DNA from: Fistulifera solaris
Taxonomy: Eukaryota
Length of the DNA: 64,000 bases
Assembly: GCA_030295235.1 (NCBI GenBank)
Contig: AP026144.1
Coordinates: 186,001 to 250,000 of the forward strand
Direction: 5' to 3'
A program made the translations under genes and the position numbers. Within the stretch, counting starts at the first letter, position 1. Each line of letters begins with the position of its first letter. Below are positions 10,812 through 26,135 of the stretch, in pieces. The notes under the pieces were generated by a model that saw nothing but the letters and a program-made list of their open reading frames with translations, did no database searches and was not told the DNA's origin.

Positions 10812-12023
10812 ATGGGATGCGGAGGTTCCAAAGAAACGGGGGCGGTTGCTCCCAGTAAAAAGAGTGCCCCTCCATCCGAGGTAGGTCACTTACGATAGAT
10901 GCATTCGATGAACAGATAATGATATCCTCCGGAATCATTTTCTTATCGTGTTTCGTACCTTATCTTCTCCCGTTTTAGTCCAAAGATCAAGCAACAGGTA
11001 CTAATTTTGGCAAACAATACCGTCTGGGAAAAGAGGTACGTGTTTGTAAGAGCAAGCGTCTCGGTATCTTTCTGCAGCACAATCATCCTGACACAACAAC
11101 AATAGCTGGGCTCGGGAGCCTTTTCGACAGTTAAAGAAGGATTTCATAAAGAAACAAAGGCAGAGTATGCAGTGAAAATTGTGACAAAGTCCAAATTGAC
11201 CTATGAGGATGAAGCCGCCCTCAAAGATGAAATTTCGGTGCTCAAGGAACTGAACCATCCCAACATTATTCGGCTGTACGATGTCTTTGAAGAGAAGGAC
11301 TACTACTTTTTAGTCACGGAAAAAATGATGGGAGGGGAGCTCTTTGATCGAATCGTTCAGAAATCATATTACAATGAAAAAGAGGCTCGTGATACGGCAC
11401 TAGTGCTCTTTCAGGCGATCAGCTACTGCCATCAGAAGAAGATAGCACACCGCGACCTTAAACCGGAGAACCTTTTGCTGACATCCACCGACAGTGATTC
11501 CAATATTAAGATTGCTGATTTTGGGTTCGCGAAAAAGTGTCCCAAGCCGAATAGCTTGACGACACAATGCGGAACGCCTGGATACGTCGCTCCGGAAATT
11601 TTGGAAGGTACGCCGTACGATATGCAAGCAGATATGTGGAGTTTGGGTGTCATAGTGTACATCATTTTAGGCGGCTATCCGCCGTTTATGGAGCAGAATC
11701 AAAGGGAGCTTTTCCGTAAGATTCGAAAAGGGCAATATCAATTCCATGTCGAATATTGGGGACAAGTATCAGAAGATGCCAAAGATTTGATTCGATCTCT
11801 TCTCGTTGTGAAGCCCAGTGCGCGGTATACCGCCACACATGCACTCAACAACAAATGGATCACCGGCGATGCCAACTCATTGAAAGAGCACGATCTTGCT
11901 GATAATCTCAAGAAGTTGAAGGCGTTCAACGCCAAACGCAAAATGAAGGCAGCTGTCAAGGCAGTAATGGCGACGCAGAAACTGAACTCTTTGGGGGTCA
12001 ACTTGAAGGAGATGTTGGATTGA
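10812..12023 (+). CDS. Ca2+/calmodulin-dependent-like Ser/Thr protein kinase; join(10812..10880,10979..11035,11106..12023)
   Basis: MGCGGSK acylation start; two GT-AG introns keep frame. LGSGAFSTV, YAVKI, HRDLKPEN, DFG, CGTPGYVAPE, and CaMK-type tail LKAFNAKRKMKAAVKAV. Confidence 0.93.
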
Positions 12024-12181
12024 AAGGCTGTTTCATGTGGTCTAGACTAAATTTAGTTTTGTTGAAGATTCATTATCGCTCCATTCTTGTTATTTTCAGC
12101 ACCGCCGCCGGATGCGACTTTTCTTTTCGAATCGAGAAATAGACAAAGCAACGATAGATATCTTCATTTTATTTGCTTATT

Positions 12182-12547
12182 TTATTTCATGTCTTCTTCA
12201 TGATCGCGGATGAATTTGATATATCTGCTTAGATCATTTAATTGCTTGACAGATCGTGCATGCTCCTTCCTGGAGTTGATTCGACGCTTTTGTTCGGTGG
12301 GTTTGATGTGCTCCTCTTGCGCCACGTGGCGTTTGTGAAGAGAGACTTTTTGGTACGTTTCGGGCTCTCGAAATTGATGAATCAGAGTATCCCAATCTTC
12401 GTATTTGAATTCCTTCTTTTCCTTATCGTATCTTTTGCCCAAAACCATTTGCCAATTGTGACGCACTGTAGCGATAGGTGACATTACTGTCCGCGACGAT
12501 GTTGCCCTTTCGCTGACCTTGGCAGCATTTATCAATACAGCTCTCAT
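12182..12547 (-). CDS. Probable organellar (mitochondrial) ribosomal protein bS21-like
   Basis: RHVAQEEHIKPTEQKRR resembles the bS21 signature (R..YEKP.EKR); basic N-terminal presequence-like region. Confidence 0.55.
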   Translation of the reverse strand: MRAVLINAAKVSERATSSRTVMSPIATVRHNWQMVLGKRYDKEKKEFKYEDWDTLIHQFREPETYQKVSLHKRHVAQEEHIKPTEQKRRINSRKEHARSVKQLNDLSRYIKFIRDHEEDMK

Positions 12548-13956
12548 GGTGAAATATCTTTTTTTTGAACAGAAAGTATGTCAATAGTTGTTAACAAATG
12601 GGTTTTGGTGGCAGGTAACGAGCGCTCTGTTATTCTTGTTTTCCTTGCATGTAGAGATGATGATGGTGAACGTGAAAACGGCCTGATAGTCACCGCACAC
12701 CGTACAGACTAGATGGAGACCCGGATGTTGTGTTACTTCGACCTTCGACCTACACAATCAGCAGGTCAGCAGAACAAGTACTTGGAAATGGGCTTTTGTT
12801 GAGCACTGCAACAATCACTAATATAGTTTCGTTGCTTTAATTGTTAGCAGCAATCGACATCAACTCGAGCGAAAACGTCGAATGACTAAAGGCAAGATGC
12901 AACGCTGCTTTAATGTCTACGTAAATATTGCGTGGGCGCCGTAGGGAAATTTCTGGTACCAGTACATTACATGGATGTTACTACTGGATGTTGTTGGAAA
13001 AGGTCTTGCCAGAATCGGACTCCCCGGGCTAGTAGTATCTGGTGTAACCGATACGTGGTATGAGTTGCATTATTTCGCCGTGGTGGACATCGCGTCGCAA
13101 CGTGCCTGTCTCGCGAGTGGTCTCCTCTCAGCTCCCAGTGCTGGTGATTGATATTTTGCACCATGGTGGTGCTGTTTCGATTCGCAACTCGGAAACCATT
13201 ACCATCGACAGCTGTCCTTCTATTCGCTTGGATGTGCCAGCGTCGTTTTGTCCGTCTGATAAATATCGAACAAGAGTGCACCACTTGCGACACTTCCTCC
13301 TACGATCCTTTCGATCTAGCTTGTTGTGGCCATTCTCGAATTCCCAACGGTTTCACCTCAGATTGAGAGGGCGTTGTGAAGCGAATCAAATCAACGTTCT
13401 CACTTGTGACCATGAAGAAAGGAAGATGCGGGCGAAATTGATTTGTTCATTGGAAACGGAGCAAATGAGGAAGCTGTCAAAACGGTCGTCGTTTTGTGAG
13501 ACAGAACGCGCATAACACGATATCTGCGTTTGTGGAGAGCATACAAAGTGGTAACTTACAAAATAATTGCGTTGATTAGTATTCTGGCTGTTTGCATATT
13601 TGTACGGACACAGCGTCCCTTGCGATCGTTTTGTTGTTGTGATGGTCGATTTGTCGTCCGCGGATAGGGGGGAAATAATTGCGTCTAGTAGAAAATCTAC
13701 GGAGAGCTACCAGGTATAGGCAAAAATTAATTGTGACCATGGAGTAGTGAGCCTACAGAAAAATTCGGCTATAATTAGTACTACGGTAATAAGGTTAGGA
13801 TTATTGATGAACCTTTTGTTCGCAGAAACTTATTTCTGTATTACTCCGGAGTACTACGTATTATTTTGCGGCTTTATTTTGGTGATACATCAATACATCG
13901 AAGCGTTAGATGGGAATGAATCATGATCATCATTGAATAACATTACTTCACATGCA

Positions 13957-15010
13957 ATGATAACCGTTGCTGAAGAAGCACGATCTAACGAGAGTTTTCA
14001 AATCGAACGAGATGAACCATCCTTCGGTGACACGAGCCGATGGGTGCAGCTACGGTATCTCGGGCTCTCAATGGTCGTATTGGCTTTGACGATCACGTGC
14101 CCTGGGGACACTGTGCTCATAGATCAGCCCTATCGGCTATGGATACTACTAATATTTTATATTGGGACACTGGTGAGCTTTCGATTGTTACATGGGAGTG
14201 ATCCTGGTTATTTATCAGCTGAGCTCATGGTGGGGCTTGACGACCATGACGACGAAGTTATTTCCTTAATAGAGATGGAAAGACTGCAGGAGTTTGATCG
14301 GGTACATCAACAAGACTCAAACGAAAATATTTTAAGGCGAGCAAGTCACAATAACGATGACAACGACGACGATGATGATTCGTATTACAAGGGAACCAGG
14401 CGGAAAGTATGTCCAATGTGTCATTTTGCTCCGCCTTTGCGAGCCCACCATTGCAAAAAATGCAACCGCTGCGTCGCGACATTCGATCATCACTGCGAGT
14501 TTGTCGGTACTTGCATCGGTGAGAGGAATCATTGTCGCTTTTGGTGGTTTTTAATGTTGCAGACAACTACGTTTCATCTCTGCTGCAATATTGTCGGTTC
14601 GTCACGCTGGGGAGTTTCGTCGCTCTTATGGAGTACCCCGCAAGGCAGTAACATGGATATTGCTCGAGTTGTAGCGGCAAAATTCTATATCTATCCTTTA
14701 TTTCTGGTTTCGCTTATTCTCCTGGCCATTCACAGTCTTTTTTGGCTTGACCAATTCGACAACCTTCGAGTGTACCAAATCGGAACGCTTGGAATATCTC
14801 AAAGGTGCGAATCAGTCGCTGATGGACCTTCCATTTAGCGGTAGATCGGTAGGCACGAATTTGCAAACCTTCTGCTGTCTGCGGGATGATGGTGTTACAC
14901 GGAAAGATAATTGGAAACCGATTCTCTGGAAGCCACCCGGGAAGATTGTACGTGATAGTGCAGACTGGTGGAATCATCCGCTGCAAAACAAGTATTGGAG
15001 TTGTTGTTAG
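13957..15010 (+). CDS. DHHC palmitoyl acyltransferase, one frameshift
   Basis: SDPG, CPMC...[19 protein letters not shown]...CIGERNH. An extra T in the T6 run at 14738-14743 shifts into TNSTTFE...PF...KYWSCC. Confidence 0.92.
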
Positions 15011-15147
15011 GAGGCTAGGATGTCCTTTTGCGCTTGTTATTGGCTTCGCTGAATTTCATGCCTTTACATCAGGTCTCTTTCAAACGGCTCCTCTCAAAAT
15101 TGGTTCCACTGATAGATCAACAAATGCGACTAGCCGCCTGTTGAATG

Positions 15148-16844
15148 TCATAGCTTGCTCCGAATAGGAACCGGTTGTGCCGAGAATCTGGTGCGGTCGT
15201 CGCTGGAGGAAAAATACGAGTCGACTTGACAATTGTATGGTCGGCGCCGAGAAAAGGCGTCGAATGCCGCGCCTATGAAATCAGTAGTTGCTTCATCCGC
15301 CCAACTCGAACTTTGACCAGGAATTGCTTGTTGCCATCCAAGATGGCCTCCGCACTTTGTTTCCATGACTAGAACATTGGGATTGGAAATACTGTAAACT
15401 AATTTTGATTTGAAAGTATTGTAGATCAAAAGTCATCTTCCGCGACCAGCTGTAGAAATGGAACCGATATAAAGCGCGCCAAACGGAACGAGCTCGCGTC
15501 GTTCCTTAATGATTTTGCATCTTTCGTCAATTCAAGTGAGCAGATAAAATTATCGTGAAATAACATGAACAATACGAAAATCATACCTTTATACCCCACG
15601 CGAAAAGCAAATGGGTGCACTGGTTCATTTCGCGCCATTACGGGAGCCACTGCATAGAAAAATGTTGAGTAGGTGGATGCAGCCGTGTTTACTTTCTGAA
15701 GAAGCAAATACTTACTAGCTTCGTCGAATTCGAGTAAAGTCAGAGCTCTTATTGCACGACGAACACAACTTTTGAAATAGGGCTCGTTGTTTTTACTTAG
15801 AGACGCCCAGTTTTCAAGCAGTACTTTCTTTTGTCCAAGCGCTAAAACGGGCGACATGATAAGGTCCGTATTCGCTGCTTGCATCCACATTGGGTTCCCC
15901 AGCGCTGCTCCGCCAGCCACACAACTCGGCAGCGTTCCGCAGAGACCTTCCTCTCCTAGATATTTGCACACAATGTTGGCGCTCAAGGAATTTCCTACCA
16001 AAAACATAGGCGTGTGTGGTGCTAGCCGAGCCGATAATCGTTGTACCACACAACGAAGATCAGCTGTATAGGCGCCGCTATAAGTGCGAGGAGTTCTGAG
16101 AGCGACGCCTCCACACCCACGCATGTTGACACCCGCAGCGATCCAGTCTCGTTTGCAACAGGCTCGTTTCATGGAGCGAACATATCCATAGTTGGAGTGA
16201 TTGTTCATGCCGTGCATTACCAACACAATCGGTTGCGAAATGGGTCCGTGCCGAATAGTTTCAATCAAACAGTCTCTATCACCGCAATCAGCAGTATCTT
16301 TCACCGGTAATTCCCAGTCAATTGCCACAGTTGCGCCATCTATAGTCATTTGCACAATTTCTCGAAATTCGACATATTCGGTAGTCGGACCACGAAATAA
16401 ATATGAGGCTGTACTGGCTACTGCTGCTCGTGTCCCTATGAATAGTTTAGGTCGAAAGGGTTTGTGTAAAAGCGAGTCGTGTGATGTCGCCAGTTGATGG
16501 TAAATGTCTTTCAAAGGTCCATCGGCAATTTGGCCGTAGACTCGGGGGGCGCGAGAAAGTTGTGTCTGCAGATGGACTTCATAACCCAGCAGGATCGCTC
16601 CCAAACTGGATAGAAGCGCAGTCCATCCATTCCTTGTTTGCGGTAAATTTTCTTGCAACAGGGAAGTCGTACGATGCACAATAGCTTCAAGCTTATGTGA
16701 AGAGCACGTTGTCGTCGTCGTCGGCTGAATCATCGTCTCCTCCTCATGCTCCTCGTCATCGCTGCTACTTTCATTTGTGGTGCCTTTTTCTCCACTGCGA
16801 GACTTCTTAACTTTCTTCCAGGAGCATTCGTGCGAAACATCCAT
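15148..16844 (-). CDS. Alpha/beta hydrolase, ABHD1-3/YheT-like (two probable introns, one frameshift)
   Basis: DGATVAIDW, HGMNNHS, NMRGCGG, nucleophile elbow GNSLSA, acid AEDD, His GGHLGW. Short in-frame intron-like stretches near 15650-15715 and 15525-15587. Confidence 0.85.
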
Positions 16845-17255
16845 GATCTATACAAATATGCAAACCCAGAATATAGGCGAAGACAACAATTGACAGCGCA
16901 TTTTTTCGAATAATGTTACCGATACAGGGAAACCCGGATGTGGAGTTGCAGATCGAAATAATAACAATCTCGATCACGCCATTATTTTTTCATGCGTATT
17001 GTGAACCAATTCCATCGCCGCTTTTTCCTACATGAAAATTGCGTGCCATGAAACGCCAACTGACTTAAAAATGACATCCCGACGTCAAAAGAACGAAAGA
17101 TGCGATGCTTTGAATGTCTACGGCGATATCACGTAGCTCAAGGAGTGAAATTTTTGTTGACCTAACTAACATGGCATCATCAGTATCCCCAACATGTAGC
17201 AATGGTACCAAGGAACGGAACTTGTACATTTTGAAAGATTACAAGTGGACTACCT

Positions 17256-20015
17256 CTATAACCAATTTATTTTGGTCGTGTGCGGCAAAGTCGCCGCCCA
17301 CCCGGGCAGATCCACTGATAAATCCAAGTCTTGCAACACCATAGGCTCATCGTAACTACTTTTCCTTTCCAAAATGGACAGTTTGTATTTCCAAGCATGC
17401 AACTGAATGCTGTGTCCCCCTTGCAGTAATTGTGCTGGTGTGAATGCACTTTTCATATCCCGACAAGCTGCACAGACCGACTTTGCCGCCTCGGCTTCCT
17501 TGACACCGATGGCATCATCTGCACTCTGTTCGACACGGAACTCATGTGCGCGCGACATGGCAGAGAGCACACGATCTACCGGGATGGGGAGAAAATGGTT
17601 TGCTACTTCCGTACTGCAAATCGCCGACAATGGCATGTCCTAGGGCATGCAAATGAACGCGCAATTGATGATTGCGTCCAGTGAGGGGACTACAGAGCAC
17701 CAGTGATGTGTCGTCACTTTCGTTGTAGTGCAGTAACTGAAAACGACTGACAGCCGGTTTCCCGTGAACGGCATCTATGATCCGAATACCGTTGGCAGGG
17801 TCGCTCGTATGAATGGGTGCCGAACATTCTAGAATGATGCTATCTTCAATATTCTCGACACTATTCGTTGGTCGCGCCACCAATTGGCACTGTATTACGC
17901 CTAAGCGTCGGCGCTGTTCTTCATGGTGTAAAAGCTGCTTTCCATCGAAACGGCCGTGTACCATGGCTATATACAACTTTCGCATTTGCTGTTGGTTCAC
18001 CTCGGAATGAAACCATCTCGCATGCGTTGGGTCTGGTGTACATAGCAATAATCCAGATGTAACCCGATCAATACGATGAAGTGGATGTATCAATACAGTC
18101 CTGTCGCTTGCAATCTGCCCTTGTAGTAACTGAACTAGAGCATTTTGGTTGTAAGGACCAGCAGGATGAACGGGTACAGTCGTTGGTTTGTTACAGACCC
18201 ATAACGTCGGGTCATTCAACCGGTAGTGCGAAACAACCGCTTCGGAGAGCGTCACTTTCTGTAGTGGAATGTCGCCTTCCGGTAATACAATAGGCGCTTC
18301 ATGCACATGAGAAATTCGTGACAATGAAGAATCGCTGGAGTGCAACAGACGATGCTCATTGACGATAGGTTCCGTCTCGTTGATCCGCAACAAGCCTAGC
18401 TTGATACACTCAGAAAGATATGGTGGGTTCCATTCTCGTTGTAATACCTGTAATGCAGATTGGCCTCGCCACGCCGGTTTGATGCGACACGACAAAGTGC
18501 GAATGACAGGTGGCGGAACACGCAAGTCACCTCGTCGATACGTGGTAGGTGGCCGTATCGTCTCACAAACATTTTTTCGGCAGATCGACACGTTTTTGCT
18601 CGTTTCATCGTATTGTTTTCCGATGTCGCTTTTAGTGTAGTGGGAGTCGACGACTCGTTTTCTCCAACCTTCCGCTTCTGCTCCAATCGCTGTTTCCGCT
18701 TCAAACTGTAAAATCCCCAACACTTTCCGGAACAATCGGTATCCCCACAATTTCGACAAACACTTGCCACGTCGTCTGGCGCAGCACCACGATATTTCTG
18801 CACACGATGTTGAATCTTTTGCATTTGCTTCCAAATGGTTTTCCTCTTTTGTTTGAATCTCTTTCCCACTTGCATAGTTTCGTACAAGGCTTGCAATTGA
18901 TGATATTGTTCCATCAATTGTGCTTCAGAAAAAGCGCGTCAAGTTGGAAAAGTAGCAATTTTGGAGATGCGCATGTGCATGGCAATGATACTCGGAATGC
19001 GCAATACGACATGAATCACAAATCAAGACGGGTTCTCGACACACGGTGCAGACGCAATCCATGGATTGGTCGTACGGAGCTTGACACAAACGGCATTGAC
19101 CCACTACTTCGTCATTGCCATCAAAGTGTTTCCGACCGTCGAAAACGAAGTTCTTGCCTTTCCATAGTGATGGAGCATCGGTTTCTTTCTCATCGCCTTT
19201 GGGAATCACAAAGGCTTCCAAGTATTTGTGAATTCCACCTTGCAAATGTTTGACATTTTGTACGGTCGGTACCGTCTGTCGGATAAACGCCGATGCCTTT
19301 TCACACCGCACACCACCGGTACAATACATGCGTACTTGTTTTCCTTCTAACTGGTGGGCATTCTTATGAACCCAGGGAATGAATTGTTGAAACGTGGTGG
19401 TTTGGGGATTAATGGCATGAACGAAATGACCGAGTTGATATTCCTTCTCGTTGCGACAATCAATCCAAACCGTATTATTGTGATCGGCTTGTAACAACTC
19501 CTGATGCCATTCTGTGGGTGAAATGTAACCTTTTCCCGTTTGCGAGAGAGAAATATTGCAAAAAACACCACCGGTATTGATTAGTTCTTTTGTTTTCCGT
19601 ATGAACAAATCGGGAAAAGAGAAGGTCGTCGTGCTGTACCTTCATCATTTTTTGCAGTCAAGTCCTGTATATTGACGTCAATGTCATCTTCTTTGACTTC
19701 AGAATGTTTAAAGTCTTCATATTTCATGCGCAACTCCGGACAGGGTGTATTTTTCCAATATTCTTGTACGGCTGTCAATCGCTTGTCATTTTCTTCACTG
19801 CATTTCGCCGCATCATCGCGCACGAGCGCCCGAATAAGTGCTTCTAACGATTCTTTTTGATGCGACGCCAAAGTACCGTTGATTCCCTCCGGTGCGACCA
19901 AAATCCGTCCTCGCAAATGCAAATGCGAACACAGTTGATGCAAGGCCTCTTGTAAGGCGTCGACCTGCTCATCAACAGGGTAATATTGATAGAACAGAAT
20001 GACGTATTGGGGCAT
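17256..20015 (-). CDS. Fusion: TrhO/UPF0176-type rhodanese + Cys-rich linker + RluA-family pseudouridine synthase (four frameshifts)
   Basis: LFYQY...LRGRILVAPEGINGTL; IDCRNEKEYQLGHF; YCTGGVRCEKAS; WKGKNFVFDGR and CxxC tail; NKP...VHPAGPY; HRIDRVTSG; PLTGRNHQLRVHL..LGHAIVGD; LHAWKY. Five ORFs abut or overlap with no intergenic gap. Confidence 0.8.
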
Positions 20016-20292
20016 CTTTTGCTGTGTTGTGTGAGTGTTTAAATAATGTTGCTTCTTTGTGCAATGGTATTACCTGGTAGTCTTCAATTTAAAGTGACAT
20101 TCATGGCATCGATTTGAAACCGTTTGTCGTTATTGCAGTGAAATAGGCTTTGGCTTTGGCTTTGGCGGCGTTTGCACTACACGCCTTAATATTTGTATGT
20201 CGAAGAGCCTTGCGAAACGTTGTCTGCGTATTTACTATAGATAATAGTGTTGACCGTTTTTCGCCACGACTGCACTTCAGTCATGAATACAT

Positions 20293-20727
20293 ATCTGGTT
20301 CGGTCCAGAAATTCTGGACCAGATAAATTTCATTCCTTCAGAAAATCTGAGCCGCTCCAGAAATTTCTTGACCAGCTCGAATTTCATTCGTACAGAAAAT
20401 CTGGTTCGTTCCAAAAATTCTTGACCAGTTGTATTTCATTCTTACAGAAAATCTGGGATGGTTTAGAAATTCTGGAACAGTTGTATTTCATTCATACAGA
20501 AATTCTGGATTAGCTAGATTTCAATTATACAGGAAATTTGGGCCGCAGGAATGAAATACAAATGGTCCAGAATATTTGAAATTATTGAGCGGTTTTTTTA
20601 CTAATATAATATTCTGGACCAAGTGTATTTCATTCAAACAAAAAATTATTTGCATTTTCTGGAGACGTGACCACACGTGTACGTAAAAAACAGCTCTCTC
20701 CCGAGTTTTCTGGACCCGTGATAACAC
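20293..20727. repeat. ~52-bp degenerate tandem array (about 4.5 units) with internal palindrome, followed by a 28-bp inverted repeat
   Basis: Units start at 20293, 20345, 20399, 20451 and 20503. GGTCCAGAA-A-TTCTGGACC at 20302-20320. Inverted repeat 20549-20576 / 20608-20635 (26/28). Confidence 0.85.
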
Positions 20728-21081: not shown

Positions 21082-21541
21082 ATGACGGCAGCAAGCAATT
21101 CTCACAGCCATTCAAGAAACGATCGAAACCTTCGCAATCCTGTAAGTTCGTTCGTTTGCAGTCATCTTTATAACGGATCATGTACTGCAATACGTCAACA
21201 AGAGCATACTCTCACCATATTCCTCATCTTACAAACGCACAGTCATCTCCTGAAGAAGGAGGAGTGGAATCATCACACCGTAACTTAACAGCAACTACTT
21301 CCGCAACAACCAATTATCATTATGCGAATAGTTCCGGAAAATTGTTACAATTCTTGCATTTAATGACGACCATGTTACGTTTACTGTTGTGGCCGGTACG
21401 GAAATTTATGACGCATTTGTTTGATTATTTACCATCCAATGATCCGTCTTTGGATGGCTTGTCACCGACCGTCACCGCCAAAGCCGCGCAACAATTTGTG
21501 CAACTCGTATCTTCCTTGACACCGGAAACACCACCACCACC

Positions 21542-21582
<41 letters not shown>

Positions 21583-22496
21583 TTTGGCAAACACTGGGAT
21601 TCACCGCACTGCAACAACAAGCAACACAAGAAGGAAAGTTGCTGTTGGTGTATTTGCATGCTCCGCTGCATCGACAAGCCAATCATGTATTGCAACAATT
21701 TGCTTCTCAAACGCATCTCTTGGGACCACCACAAACACTACCACCACCACCACAACAACAACAACAACAACTGGTACTGGCTCTAGGAGTCAGTGTTCAC
21801 ACCGCCTTGGGAACTCATTTGCAGCATTCACTCCAAGCCACGGCATTACCGGCCGTGTTTGTCTTGCAGCCGTCAACGACCGTCTCACGACCGATGCAAT
21901 TGTTGGTGCGAGTACAAGGACCGACGCTCGTACAGTACTGTCAATCCAGTCACACCATGGCACCGCTGCTCCAAATACTCCAATCGGCCGTCCAACGCCA
22001 CCAAACCGTCTTGGCGGAACAATTGGCACGACAATGGCAACGACAAGAAGAAATGACGTTGCGGCAACAACAAGACGAAGAATATCAAGCGGCCTTGCTC
22101 GCGGATCAAGAACGAGAACGACTGGCGCAAGAGGCGAAACGGAAACAGGAAGAACAGCTACAACGTGAACAAATGGCATTGCAAGAACAAGAAACGCGTT
22201 TGCAACAAGCCAAAGCACAGATTCGGCCGGAACCGGATGGTACGACACCGAGTGCGATGGTGCGTTTGGTATTGCCGTCGGGACAGAAGATTAATCGACG
22301 CTTTCATGCGGATGATACCATTGGCACAGTGCGATCCTTCTTGATGGTTTATTTTCATGAAAACGAGATTCCGATTCAAAATGTGCGTTTATCGACGAAT
22401 TTTCCGAAACAGCATTACGATGATGATGCGGTGTGTTTGCAAGAGGGTGGATTGGTCCCACAGGCTGTTTTGATGGTGCAAGATTTGGATGCGTAG
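21082..22496 (+). CDS. UBX-domain protein, FAF2/Ubx2-like p97 cofactor; join(21082..21141,21243..22496)
   Basis: GTAAGT...CACAG intron in frame. UAS-like GKLLLVYLHAP, coiled coil LRQQQDEEYQAALLADQE, UBX RLVLPSG.KINRRF...TNFPK. Confidence 0.9.
21543..21581 (+). repeat. (CAA)13 microsatellite encoding polyQ
   Basis: Perfect CAA run inside the UBX gene; a shorter (CCA)n(CAA)n copy lies near 21741-21770. Confidence 0.95.
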
Positions 22497-22750
22497 GGAA
22501 GAAAAATTAAAAGTAAAAAATAGAATAAGGAATGAATGAATGAATGAATCAATAACTATGATTGGTTTCGTGATAATCATTATTTGGTTTCATCCGGGTC
22601 AATCGCTGGGTACCGATAATCAAACTATCATTTAAAGCATCAGCGGAAGCGAAAAGTTACATAGTGTGTGTTATTAATTACCCTCCTCTTTACTCTGGTA
22701 ACCCAAAGGGATGAACAGTCACACGCCCTACCACAACAAAGAATTTCAAT

Positions 22751-23729
22751 TTACTCCATTTGCGACGGATCTTGTCCCTCTCCTCCTTCGTTCGCCTTCT
22801 TCTCCAAACGCAGACACGTTCCATCTTCGTAAATACCCAATGCCCGACACCCGTCAGCCCAGTATTGCTTCCCACCACTCGCATTGTCACGACGCACCCG
22901 CAGTTTTCGGAGTTCCATTTTGATTTGCGTCGGAATGTGTTGACAGGCTTGACACAAATGACTCCCCGCCATGTTCTGCGCGGCTTGGTAGACACCAAAC
23001 AGCTTGGCGGGATAGTACACGGCCCCGCGTCCACGCGTCCGCAAGGGATAGGCCGCACAATGGCGACAACGGAGACCGACTTGTCCCAAGACGACGGGTT
23101 TTTTGCGTCCCTGCGTGTTGGATTCGACATCTTCTTGCGTGGCTTCAAAGACTTCCAATTGTCGACGCACCAGTATTTGGTACTCGGACAACTGTTCGGT
23201 ATCACAGGACATGCTCAAGACGATGCCCGCCGATCGGGGTTTGGTGGGTCGACCCTGCGGTGCTCCGTACATGGGCATAAAGCCCGGATATCCGTACGGT
23301 GGCATCATCATGTGTGGAGGAGGAGGGAACATTCCCGGGGGGAACGGAGACCCGTAATCTCCACTTTTTGTTTCGTCGGTCTTTTCTTCACTTTGTCGTT
23401 GTTTCTTGCTGCGGGGCGGCAACGGCATCGGAGCATTCTGATATCCGGGGGAAACTGCCCGGAGGCATTCCCATGTACGCCATCGGATGATACGGCGGTG
23501 GCATGGGAGGATATCCCGGGTAGTTGTAGTTGGGATACTGCGACAGGTTGTTGTTTCCCGTACTGTTGGGTGTCGATTCATCTTCTCCTTTGCGCTTGGC
23601 GGCAGGAGTGGATGCACCATCGTTGTTACTATCATTATTATGATTAATTGTTATTAGAGCTCCTCCTCCTCCTCTTTCTTCCTCTTCCTCGACTTCTTCT
23701 TCTTCTTCTTTGGTTTGTTTACCCGCCAT
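22751..23729 (-). CDS. Diatom-type Cys/His domain protein with Pro/Met-rich N-terminus (putative transcription regulator), one frameshift
   Basis: LSEYQILVRRQLEVFEA...GQVGLRCRHC...AVYYP...AAQNM...HL..C..IP, a motif I recall as expanded in diatoms. ORFs 23388..23729 and 22751..23635 overlap. Confidence 0.7.
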
Positions 23730-24545
23730 TTTGGAATCATCATCTATTGTTGACGCAAAAAGTGAGCGTTATTGTTCCTTTTCTCAAATTGGAAAGCCTG
23801 CGCGCATTGTCGTTCGCATGATGCGTACAATAAACGTACCTTCCCGGGTGACTTGGGCTTCTTCTTTCGACATGATGTCTTTCCTTATTTATCCGACACG
23901 AATTTTTGCGTATTTTCAATCTCGAAATGCCGATCCCTTCCGATGCAATCAAGAGAGGACCTCACAAAACTCACGCACCAAAAGAGAGATTGAATGAAGA
24001 GAGAGGACGGTTTTTATGGATGATGGTGCGAACGTTGGCTGGTGTCGTAAAACGCAGCAAGAAGTTCCCCACTTGCGAAGAGAACGGAGAGGATGTTTTT
24101 GGCGGCGATTTTAGTATGATATCAAGTGTAATATGTAATTTTACCTATGCCATAGTATTATAAAAATTTGCAATTCCCTACCCGCTAAATACATTTAATC
24201 AACGGCTTGATATTTCCGTTGATTTCACTTAAAAGTTTAAATGGCAAAACTCCATTCGGGACGTGGGACAAAGACAATGCTTCCATGAATGAACCGAGAA
24301 ATCGGTCCCGCACTGGAGCAAGGTACGTACGACGTACCGTTCGGGAGCGCATTATTTTTTTGTTGTTAAAAATTGATAACGATCCTCCGCCAAATACGGG
24401 TACAGTAGGACCATCAAGAAAGACAAAACATCCAACATTGAGAGCATAGAGATCCTTATGTTTCTTGGTAGTGCTTTAGAACAACAATAATTCACAGGGA
24501 CGCTACTCGTACGTGTGTGAAGCCATCGACGGCAAGCCAGATACG

Positions 24546-26135
24546 ATGGACGAATTCGAACGAGATACGCGAAGAAGAAGTAGGAGAGTTTTTGTCAAGG
24601 ATTCGCGCCCTTTTGATCGTTTCTCGTCACCAATGCGTAGCAGACGAAAACGAAAATCAATACACCTTTCTTTGCTCTTGCTGTGCTTGTGGGGACTCAT
24701 TCTCTGCTTTCCGTCAGCGTACGCATTCTCTTCTTCTCTATCGAAAACTACTACTATAGATACAAAAAGAATGTCTTGTCATCCCCGGACGCACCGCCAG
24801 TTGCATTCGTCGCAAACACTCGACGATTCGGAACCGGACAAGTTAAAAACATGGCAATCTACACTCTCCACTGGGTCGCAGCGAGTTCTAACAACTATAC
24901 ACTCATCGCCATGGTTGCAACTGATCACCGTCTTTGTAGGCTACACATTCCATCTGGTGTATTTAACACAACGACAATTCATTTTTCCGATACAATGGTG
25001 GGCTTCCCCGGGAAAAGAATGGAGAGCCTATCGATATTTTGTGGGGATAGGCTACGATTCGCTAGCGGGTATTATCGCAATGATGTTCTACTACCAAAAA
25101 TTTCGTTCACACAACCAGCAACCACCACCGGTGCTAGTGCCCCGGACGATGCCGTGGAAATTCCCTCCAGCACCTCCGTTGAAGACCCAGGCTGCTACCA
25201 ATTTAGTCGAAGCGATCCGGAATCAATATTCGTGGTCTCATGTCGTACACCGTGCCACGTTCCTCTTGACTACCATCTGTCTCATTACCGCGTATTTCGC
25301 GACGGGACGGTTCAGTCTTTTCTGGCAAGATCTATTGTATGAACTGTCCGCCAAGGGGTTTCCTTTGACAACTCCGCAGTTCCGCGCGTGGTCGGTCTTG
25401 TTGGGACATTTGTCGTGGGTCGGGGTGGGTTCCGCCTTGTTGTTTCTCTTTCCCTTTGCTCCCCGGTTCTTTCGACCAGCGCATCCACGCGAACGGGCGT
25501 CTTGGAACAGCGAACAATTGTCCAAAAAACCTTGGCACTGGTTCCGATTTCAGTTTCGTAAACCCCCAAACGGTCAATCCGTGTGGGTTTGGTGGTAAGT
25601 ACCCATGAATCGTTTCATTCGCGGTGTTGTTTTAGCTTAATGGAGTGACTGACTTGATTTGTTGCATCCGTTTCGTGAAACAAGGGTCTTGGGTGGCTAT
25701 TGTGTCAGTTGTTGGTTATTCAATCTAGCGGATTGGGCCAATCACTTTTTGTTACCCGACGCCGTTTTGCAGTTGTCCAATGAATCTGTCGTGTCGCAAC
25801 TGGTGGCACCCGAGTTCAACGACCGAACCGCGTCGTTGATAGGCTATATTGCGCCCTGTTTATCGGCCCCTCTGTGGGAGGAACTGCTGTACCGTGGCTT
25901 CTTGTTACCTGGATTGTGGAGTTGCTTGTTTCGACATAATTTTAGCTTGGCCGCTCTCGTGCAGGCAGTGGTCTTTTCAGCGCATCACATGTCTCTTGTC
26001 GCTGCATTGCCGTTGGCTGTGCTCGGATATGCGTGGGCTGTTTTGTACGGGCTTAGTGGAAATCTTTGGACGGTGTGTCTCGTGCACGCACTTTGGAATT
26101 CCAGGGTCTTTTTGACGGGTTGGTTGGGTCTGTGA
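24546..26135 (+). CDS. CPBP/Abi (CAAX prenyl protease 2-like) intramembrane metalloprotease; join(24546..25594,25685..26135)
   Basis: APLWEELLYRG, FSAHH and HALWN motifs; GTAAGT donor at 25595 and AAG acceptor at 25684 restore the frame; multiple TM segments. Confidence 0.88.

Follow-up and report, generated by a model that had tools for sequence, protein, structure and literature searches.

To our knowledge, TrhO (YceA/YbfQ, UPF0176) offers the only oxygen-dependent route to 5-hydroxyuridine (ho5U) at the wobble position of tRNA. According to Sakai et al. 2019 (PMC6599085), it makes ho5U34 with O2 in E. coli and B. subtilis, the characterised enzymes modify U34 in tRNAs that read four-codon boxes, and the loop residues C200, T201, G203 and R205 plus K112 are necessary. 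The same paper describes a TrhO-TrmR fusion in Phytophthora sojae, P. ramorum and Phaeodactylum tricornutum and takes eukaryotic TrhO homologues to suggest modification of the xo5U type (5-hydroxyuridine derivatives); its Supplementary Data 2 tabulates TrhO as present in Phaeodactylum and Thalassiosira. Here we analyse a gene of the raphid diatom Fistulifera solaris in which, by homology, a TrhO module is joined to a pseudouridine synthase of the RluA family in the broad sense. The gene lies on the minus strand at 17256..20015 of a 64,000-nucleotide stretch (assembly GCA_030295235.1, contig AP026144.1, positions 186,001 to 250,000), which we call the window and whose numbering is used throughout.

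The diatom protein shares with TrhO the order UPF0176_N, rhodanese, Rhodanese_C and the loop CTGG[IV]RCEK, but it stands in a eukaryote-type branch and carries an insert in the N-terminal domain region, a helical and Cys-knuckle extension and the attached synthase. Nearest to its N-terminal half are human TSTD2 and the stand-alone eukaryotic TrhO homologues, in which an extension after Rhodanese_C is common (20 of 23). Such TSTD2-type proteins end after the extension, whereas the diatom protein continues into an S4-like module and the synthase. With the RluA family (RluA, RluC, RluD, TruC, RPUSD1, RPUSD4) it has in common PF00849, the HRxD motif and the fold (E 3e-12 to 1e-8), yet its synthase contains a ~60-residue insert with a C-x2-C pair, is fused to TrhO and scores below the equivalog cut-offs. 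Like the TrhO-TrmR fusion, it combines a stramenopile TrhO homologue with a second tRNA-modifying type of enzyme; the partner there is a methyltransferase acting on ho5U itself, here a pseudouridine synthase. Bacterial fusions likewise unite these two enzyme families on one polypeptide, with TrhO ahead of the synthase, but they are shorter (~600 versus ~920 amino acids, aa) and nearly all are without Rhodanese_C.

Gene structure and homopolymer lengths

As assembled, the locus consists of five overlapping stop-to-stop open reading frames (ORFs) on the minus strand, at 19581-20069 (162 aa), 18925-19641 (238 aa), 18396-18938 (180 aa), 17542-18924 (460 aa) and 17256-17639 (127 aa). Successive pairs overlap by 61, 14, 529 and 98 bases, and two frames alternate. 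A sequence-only reading of the window had joined these ORFs into one gene of ~920 aa by single-base fixes near 19612, 18930, 18575 and 17585, carrying the fusion over a TGA at 18925. Public sequencing data bear this out. Contigs of public sequencing runs were aligned to 17100-20300; run X1 accounts for 0.88 of the region's sampled words, and small shares are found in two further runs of X1's study and in a wetland metagenome (X2). X2 belongs to another study, represents a relative ~6-10% different and backs sites 2 and 4; X3, a run of X1's study, backs site 1. The kind of runs X1, X3 and X4 is guessed, and their contigs say nothing on expression.

The contigs differ from the window at 19614, 18929, 18571 and 17586. 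At site 1 (19615..19618, A4 on the plus strand, T4 on the coding strand) they are one base longer, an extra A standing behind 19614 in X1 (7.36/7.36 depth) and X3 (15/15). At site 2 (18929..18933, A5 on the plus strand) they are one base shorter, with the base at 18929 missing in X1 (42.3/42.3) and X2 (21.3/21.3); once the T5 of the coding strand is read as T4, the TGA at 18925-18927 drops out of frame. Site 3 (18572..18577, T6 on the plus strand) is one base longer in the contigs, with an extra T behind 18571 (X1, 29.5/29.5), and site 4 (17586..17589, G4 on the plus strand) one base shorter, the base at 17586 being absent in X1 (37.7/37.7) and X2 (9.86/9.86). All four sites are homopolymers of 4 to 6 bases, at which the window is too long twice and too short twice. 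Two contigs that otherwise match the window letter for letter nevertheless have the corrected homopolymer lengths (one gap each).

With the four differences applied, the frame stays open over 937 codons and yields 919 aa from the ATG at 20015-20013 to the TAG at 17258-17256, with no other stops. Along its whole length the product is collinear with P0002, a Fistulifera solaris protein of 925 aa (residues 1-925; 89.3% identity, 6 gap positions). The corrected ORF also aligns end-to-end with a 953-aa metagenome protein (84.3% identity) and retains 105/105 columns that are invariant among 33 orthologues. No intron joint is seen between 17100 and 20143 in the contigs, and the ORFs of the window allow no ATG-started second gene downstream of the TGA in the synthase frame. 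Hence 17256-20015 is almost certainly a single intact, intronless nuclear gene in which the window assembly miscounts four homopolymer runs; we judge the frameshifts to be assembly errors because the contigs correct all four sites, the product is collinear with P0002 and the invariant residues are kept. For annotation, this means that the gene is intact and the window assembly has homopolymer errors. We also considered introns as the cause of the frame changes, and stop-codon recoding or programmed frameshifting; both were discarded, given the absence of any joint in 17100-20143 and the collinearity of the corrected ORF with P0002.

Over 17803-18199, X1 contains two versions of the sequence, the first identical to the window, the second differing from it at 35 of 397 bases (~9%). 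The divergence of the second version resembles that of the window gene from the 89%-identical P0002, and the organism seems to carry two diverged gene copies (alleles or homeologues).

Domain layout and identity of the two halves

The order UPF0176_N, rhodanese, Rhodanese_C, linker, S4-like module and synthase, which had been proposed from the window alone, is recovered by Pfam, TIGR00005 and structural models. All the features that follow are on the minus strand. The acylphosphatase-like UPF0176_N domain of the TrhO module (19800..20003; PF17773, 1.3e-16, 61.2 bits against a cut-off of 26.2) is followed by an insert with a conservation of 0.30 and low predicted local distance difference test (pLDDT) values in the model of P0002. 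The rhodanese domain (19216..19500; PF00581, 3.6e-10) holds the active-site loop CTGGVRC at 19303-19323, which aligns with the CTGGIRCEK loop of PDB 4f67. Rhodanese_C, the Cys/His-rich tail of the TrhO module (18979..19161; PF12368, 2.2e-12), has ten Cys/His positions retained in at least 97% of the 33 orthologues. The linker (18576..18926) consists of a helical hairpin with a basic patch, a Cys knuckle of the form C-x2-C-x4-C-x3-C-W-G (18711-18758), whose four Cys are retained in 91% of the 33 orthologues, and a variable tether. Neither the linker nor the pre-catalytic piece matches a Pfam family significantly.

That pre-catalytic module of the synthase half (18205..18573) is aligned by TIGR00005 from profile position 3; we call it S4-like because of this alignment and of the fold match to full-length RluD described below, not because of Pfam. 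The PseudoU_synth_2 catalytic domain follows (17644..18204; PF00849, 8.5e-24, 84.9 bits against a cut-off of 26.8), with the motif HRID and its catalytic Asp at 18067-18078. The end of the synthase domain (17256..17585) comprises a lineage-specific insert with the C-x2-C pair, a conserved L-H-A strand and the C-terminus. The orthologue alignment places this conserved insert of ~60 residues ahead of the last synthase strands. Although no Pfam family is found in the third and fifth ORFs of the window, the fifth contains the conserved insert plus the final synthase strands and is not a separate tail. Among the 33 full-length orthologues, C-T-G-G-x-R-C-E-K is invariant (33/33), as are H-R-x-D and the family Tyr and Arg of the synthase (33/33), so both catalytic motifs noted from the sequence, CTGGVRC and HRID, are present and conserved throughout. 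The gene has no N-terminal extension, since MPQYV... is already the start of the first domain, and the 33 orthologues have 0-80 residues ahead of it (~18 for those in mid-list), which makes it improbable that they share a plastid or mitochondrial presequence.

The AlphaFold model of P0002, built with the 33-orthologue alignment, has a mean pLDDT of 78.6 and a predicted template modelling (pTM) score of 0.51, the domains themselves being confident. It contains helices 370-386 and 391-413 after Rhodanese_C, a stretch with pLDDT <50 at 440-490 and strands 878-888 and 899-906 in the C-terminal part, and suggests that the protein is probably made of two heads on a flexible tether. The synthase piece of the window was modelled separately (343 aa, 47-sequence alignment; pLDDT 85, pTM 0.77). 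Its best fold match in the PDB is full-length RluD (2ist, 321 residues), with an E-value of 2.9e-12 over 325 aligned columns that include the S4 domain. Other fold matches are RluA (2i82, 2e-10), RluC (1v9k, 2.2e-10), RluD in a pre-50S particle, and human RPUSD4 and RPUSD1 at ~1e-8.

By sequence, the N-terminal half is a TSTD2-type TrhO module. P0002 reaches 182.2 bits with the TrhO equivalog NF001133 (cut-off 170 bits), and the frameshift-split pieces of the window give 142.9 and 45.9 bits separately. The rhodanese piece matches PDB 4f67 (Legionella Lpg2838, 1.6e-26) and 9j5o ('tRNA uridine(34) hydroxylase', 1.4e-24) with the active-site loops aligned. The loop residues matching C200, T201, G203 and R205 are invariant among the 33 orthologues, and the N domain contains an invariant Lys (K109 of P0002), a candidate for the Lys that matches E. 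coli K112.

For the synthase half, membership holds at the level of the broad RluA family only. TIGR00005, its best-scoring synthase model, gives the window piece 150.3 bits and P0002 149.7, short of the cut-off of 192.7 bits; the specific equivalogs give 70.3 bits for RluC (cut-off 378), 65.5 for TruC (328), 52.8 for RluA (NF007543; 286) and 40.2 for RluD (351). Among PDB sequences, RluC is closest (3.2e-16, 62.2 bits), followed by RluA (1.8e-13, 53.1 bits). A homologue search with the synthase half among proteins of 188-601 aa yielded 113 matches, the first ~28 of which look like fragments of the fused family, and none of the 113 is a named eukaryotic orthologue, Pus8 and Pus9 included. Look-alikes in a protein atlas include clusters of fungal tRNA pseudouridine(31) and (32) synthases, which are leads only. 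E. coli RluA is the psi32/psi746 (pseudouridine) synthase, and the RluA family includes enzymes acting on the anticodon arm. Nevertheless, the suggestion made from the window alone of an RluA/Pus9-type enzyme for position 32 is not supported as it stands: no specific equivalog is matched, the RluA score being 52.8 against 286 and the layout closest to RluD, and position 32 is a guess.

Distribution and origins of the fusion

Homologues were sought with a 700-residue read-through of the middle of the gene, the TGA being written as X. The search gave 504 proteins at E <=0.001 among 8000 scored, the best 120 of which were examined. PF17773, PF00581, PF12368 and PF00849 occur together in one protein of ~900-1200 aa in 84 of these 120; PF00849 is found in all 120, and together with at least one family of the TrhO module in 119. 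The 36 without the full set are shorter proteins. Similarly, scanning with P0002 in HMMER returned 316 cluster representatives at E <=1e-30. The named matches belong to diatoms, both raphid and centric (Fistulifera, Amphora, Cylindrotheca, Nitzschia, Pseudo-nitzschia, Seminavis, Thalassiosira, Ditylum), to the diatom-bearing dinoflagellate Kryptoperidinium and to the bolidophytes Tetraparma and Triparma, and a fused form of 937 aa is present in the labyrinthulomycete Mucochytrium quahogii. Five transcriptome entries carry both halves on one predicted protein (P0046, P0047, P0070, P0097 and P0144), and three of them (P0046, P0070, P0097) are labelled 'type:complete'. Thus, the fusion is real and conserved; as to the findings that the sequence-only reading had named as refuting it, the TGA at 18925 falls out of frame and the orthologues are fused rather than encoded as two genes.

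An apparent short paralogue with Rhodanese_C and synthase (15 of the 120, plus several representatives) was rejected and represents cut gene calls: all 20 short-form N-termini inspected, 15 from the 120 and five from the representatives, begin inside the rhodanese domain, and nine begin with V or L rather than M. Two synthase-only proteins, P0184 (Mayamaea pseudoterrestris, 351 aa) and P0404 (MMETSP, 452 aa, 'type:complete'), are 42% and 38% identical to the synthase of the window and may be split gene models, partial transcripts or true unfused forms. Diatoms also possess a second TrhO-type paralogue of ~600-680 aa without the synthase (P0204 from Seminavis robusta, 676 aa; P0203, P0193, P0233). 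Its C-terminal ~250 residues have no Pfam match, and no methyltransferase family is found in P0204; it is not obviously the TrhO-TrmR fusion of Sakai et al. Further partners of TrhO modules include glutathione S-transferase (GST; P0287, P0289), MIB_HERC2 (P0186, P0209), PF14903 (P0281, P0283, P0284), PF07386 (P0291, P0293) and PF13238 (P0286), and the atlas holds plant TrhO-FSH1 proteins.

A shorter fusion of TrhO and synthase is common in Planctomycetes and Verrucomicrobia. When long proteins related to an Armatimonadetes TrhO are collected, 101 of the 120 listed combine PF17773, PF00581 and PF00849 in 587-698 aa, under names such as Planctomycetales, Pirellulales and Luteolibacter and two metagenome-assembled genomes (MAGs) of Pseudomonadota/Proteobacteria. 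Both halves of these proteins are distant from the diatom protein. With the TrhO half as query, the bacterial fusions score a median of 64 bits and the 80 best stand-alone bacterial TrhO proteins 116, while the nearest non-fused relatives, of ~400-470 aa, reach a median of 187 bits (23/23); those that are named are eukaryotic (Amorphochlora, Heterosigma, Symbiodinium 'Tstd2' and Paulinella). The linker matches 20 of these 23 stand-alone TrhO-like proteins and none of the 101 bacterial fusions. The synthase halves of the bacterial fusions have a median of 54 bits and a maximum of 82.7, which, with query pieces that differ slightly, is about as distant as RluC (62.2) and RluA (53.1) from the PDB. 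Searching prokaryote genomes with the 33-orthologue alignment found stand-alone TrhO only, the best 80 of 596 matching nothing past query residue ~396. The ~600-aa bacterial layout was absent from the Pfam-scanned representatives among the top 150 (a scan that, within P0203-P0251, took in all but 28), which agrees with the distance of the bacterial fusions from the diatom protein.

A tree of the TrhO module was computed from 68 rows, namely the window, 15 eukaryotic fusions, 20 eukaryote-labelled stand-alone proteins and, from bacteria, 16 each of the 101 fusions and the 80 stand-alone proteins. All eukaryote-labelled rows fall on one side of a branch with a Shimodaira-Hasegawa-like approximate likelihood ratio test (SH-aLRT) support of 97, and the bacterial fusions form one group (100) within the bacterial side. 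The label 'fused' changes four times on this tree, and the approximately unbiased (AU) test rejects one clade of all fusions (difference in log-likelihood 177.7, p-AU 3.8e-72). Since their positions differ and a single clade is rejected, the eukaryotic and bacterial fusions are of separate origin. Among the eukaryotic rows, fusions from diatoms and bolidophytes group together (98). The starred branches of the tree, if true, force at least two label changes. Fusions of labyrinthulomycete type (P0141, P0144, P0151) are placed elsewhere (99), with the stand-alone P0183. This points either to repeated origins of the fusion in eukaryotes or to a lack of resolution at that depth of the TrhO tree, whose backbone is unresolved.

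Part of this was already known: orthologues are in public protein sets, and their architecture is recognised by automatic annotation. Many carry the automatic Joint Genome Institute (JGI) name 'predicted sulfurtransferase/23S rRNA-/tRNA-specific pseudouridylate synthase', and the 89%-identical protein is a 'hypothetical protein' in NCBI. In the full-text literature, represented mostly by titles and abstracts and with few subscription journals, no description of a fusion of TrhO with a pseudouridine synthase was found; the available parts of PMC12288880 and PMC13602947 describe none, and a mention in PMC4075521 is unrelated. The word 'pseudouridine' is absent from four supplement files of PMC6599085. 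New here is that the fusion in eukaryotes uses a TSTD2-type module and has an origin separate from the bacterial one. The sequence-only reading had also taken the gene as a hint that a diatom carries out chemistry of the U34 hydroxylation type; the TrhO homology behind it stands, but its novelty does not, as diatom TrhO is listed in PMC6599085. The gain is hence moderate, given that orthologues are public under automatic names, diatom TrhO was tabulated in 2019 and the function is only predicted.

Putative function, rival readings and genomic surroundings

With this in mind, we propose that the ~919-aa protein would be a two-headed RNA-modifying enzyme. Head 1 (residues ~1-440) would by homology be an O2-dependent hydroxylase forming 5-hydroxyuridine at tRNA wobble position 34, and head 2 (~495-919) would combine an S4-like RNA-binding module with an RluA-family pseudouridine synthase, the two being joined by a poorly conserved tether of ~50 residues. 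Both heads would act on the same RNA, for which cytosolic tRNAs with U34, at their anticodon stem-loop, are the most probable candidates, so that one binding event could install the wobble hydroxylation and a nearby pseudouridine (31/32 possible). The basic helices and the S4-like module would assist in gripping the RNA. Judged from sequence, it is fairly probable that both heads are active on RNA. That they meet on the same anticodon stem-loop is a tentative proposal which may well prove wrong; a shared pathway or substrate is suggested because the same families have been fused at least twice independently, in the same order and with both active sites conserved. Doubtful, in our estimation, is the further notion that stramenopiles independently built the two-headed enzyme of planctomycetes and Verrucomicrobia because both modifications are installed together on the same tRNAs.

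Several points weigh against this proposal. At the level of the gene, X1 may be the source sample of the window itself and hence is not fully independent. Within the protein, Pfam S4 (PF01479) does not match the pre-catalytic piece even when E-values as high as 10 are admitted, and the pTM of 0.51 makes the relative placement of the two heads in the P0002 model untrustworthy. The layout of S4-like module and catalytic domain is that of the rRNA enzymes RluC/RluD rather than of RluA, the synthase half stays under every equivalog cut-off and, once fragments of the fused family are set aside, has no closer relatives than generic bacterial RluA-family proteins (<=77 bits). The TrhO tree was made by a quick method, with SH-aLRT support only and subsampled bacterial rows, and most eukaryote-labelled stand-alone rows are unnamed, so that the label is partly an assumption. 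We know of no report of xo5U-type nucleosides in eukaryotic cytosolic tRNA. Finally, the function of TSTD2 is unknown according to a 2023 review (PMC10135228).

Some of these points favour a reading in which the heads act on rRNA or on different RNAs, with an RluC/RluD-like synthase and a TrhO half that either modifies an rRNA uridine or serves as an accessory RNA-binding part. RluC is the best sequence match in the PDB (3.2e-16) and, with 70.3 bits, the top equivalog score among the named E. coli enzymes, RluD (2ist) is the best fold match (2.9e-12), and substrates of eukaryotic TrhO-type proteins are not known (PMC10135228). Yet these scores lie far under the family cut-offs, with RluA nearly as close (1.8e-13 by sequence, 2e-10 by fold), and the invariant catalytic loop of the TrhO half argues that it is no mere binding module. 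Moreover, the characterised TrhO enzymes all act on tRNA U34 (PMC6599085), and the atlas leads, though leads only, point toward fungal tRNA pseudouridine 31/32 synthases. We thus consider an rRNA role unlikely. A bifunctional enzyme whose TSTD2-type head performs other chemistry, for instance sulfur transfer or another base modification, without ho5U, appears quite unlikely. In its favour, a rhodanese fold usually means persulfide chemistry, proteins of the eukaryote type stand apart as a group in the TrhO tree (97 SH-aLRT) and have a helical and Cys-knuckle extension missing from the 101 bacterial fusions, and no xo5U nucleoside is known to us from eukaryotes. Against this stand the score of P0002 above the TrhO equivalog cut-off, the invariance of the residues needed for ho5U, and the TrhO-TrmR fusions of Phytophthora and Phaeodactylum, reported in PMC6599085, which tie stramenopile TrhO to xo5U chemistry.

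It would also be conceivable that the frameshifts are real, the locus being either a pseudogene copy in decay or more than one gene. The window as assembled does show four frame changes and an in-frame TGA, and the ~9% different second version in X1 over 17803-18199 could mask a dead copy. However, contigs otherwise identical to the window carry the corrected lengths, all changes sit in homopolymers (two longer, two shorter) with no other stops, the 105/105 invariant residues are intact, and past the TGA there is no ATG-started gene in the synthase frame, which makes decay or separate genes highly improbable.

Coming back to the two-headed enzyme on tRNA, the tie between TrhO and synthase in eukaryotes and the independent bacterial pairing argue that eukaryotic TrhO homologues also work on RNA, and the fusion points to a concrete substrate for them. 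If the more doubtful notion of joint installation on the same tRNAs is true, diatom cytosolic tRNAs would contain wobble nucleosides of the xo5U type, a chemistry so far documented only in bacteria, and the fusion would open a first way to study experimentally what the orphan TSTD2 proteins of eukaryotes do, the human protein included. Phaeodactylum and Thalassiosira are amenable to genetic manipulation.

Just upstream of the gene, 20203-20538 is a tandem array with a period of 52 (4.1 copies, 20293-20508) and then of 33 (20465-20538). Contig depth over the array is 2364 in X1 and 802 in X2, compared with ~10-60 over the gene, with many loose ends, and the array is probably a dispersed repeat of high copy number. 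At 20143-20258, X1 and X2 each have one contig that jumps over 114 bases (ends TA..GT; 21 letters on the shorter side); lying upstream of the start codon at the repeat edge, this is probably a repeat-length variant and not an intron. The neighbours are ordinary eukaryotic genes, encoding on one side (11106-16847) a protein kinase (11106-12023), a DHHC palmitoyltransferase (13927-14838) and an alpha/beta hydrolase (15426-16847, minus strand), and on the other (21174-26135) a UBX-domain protein (21174-22496) and an Rce1-like CAAX protease (25653-26135). Long ORFs overlapping in other frames at 21443-22168 and 24641-25342 may reflect further homopolymer errors.

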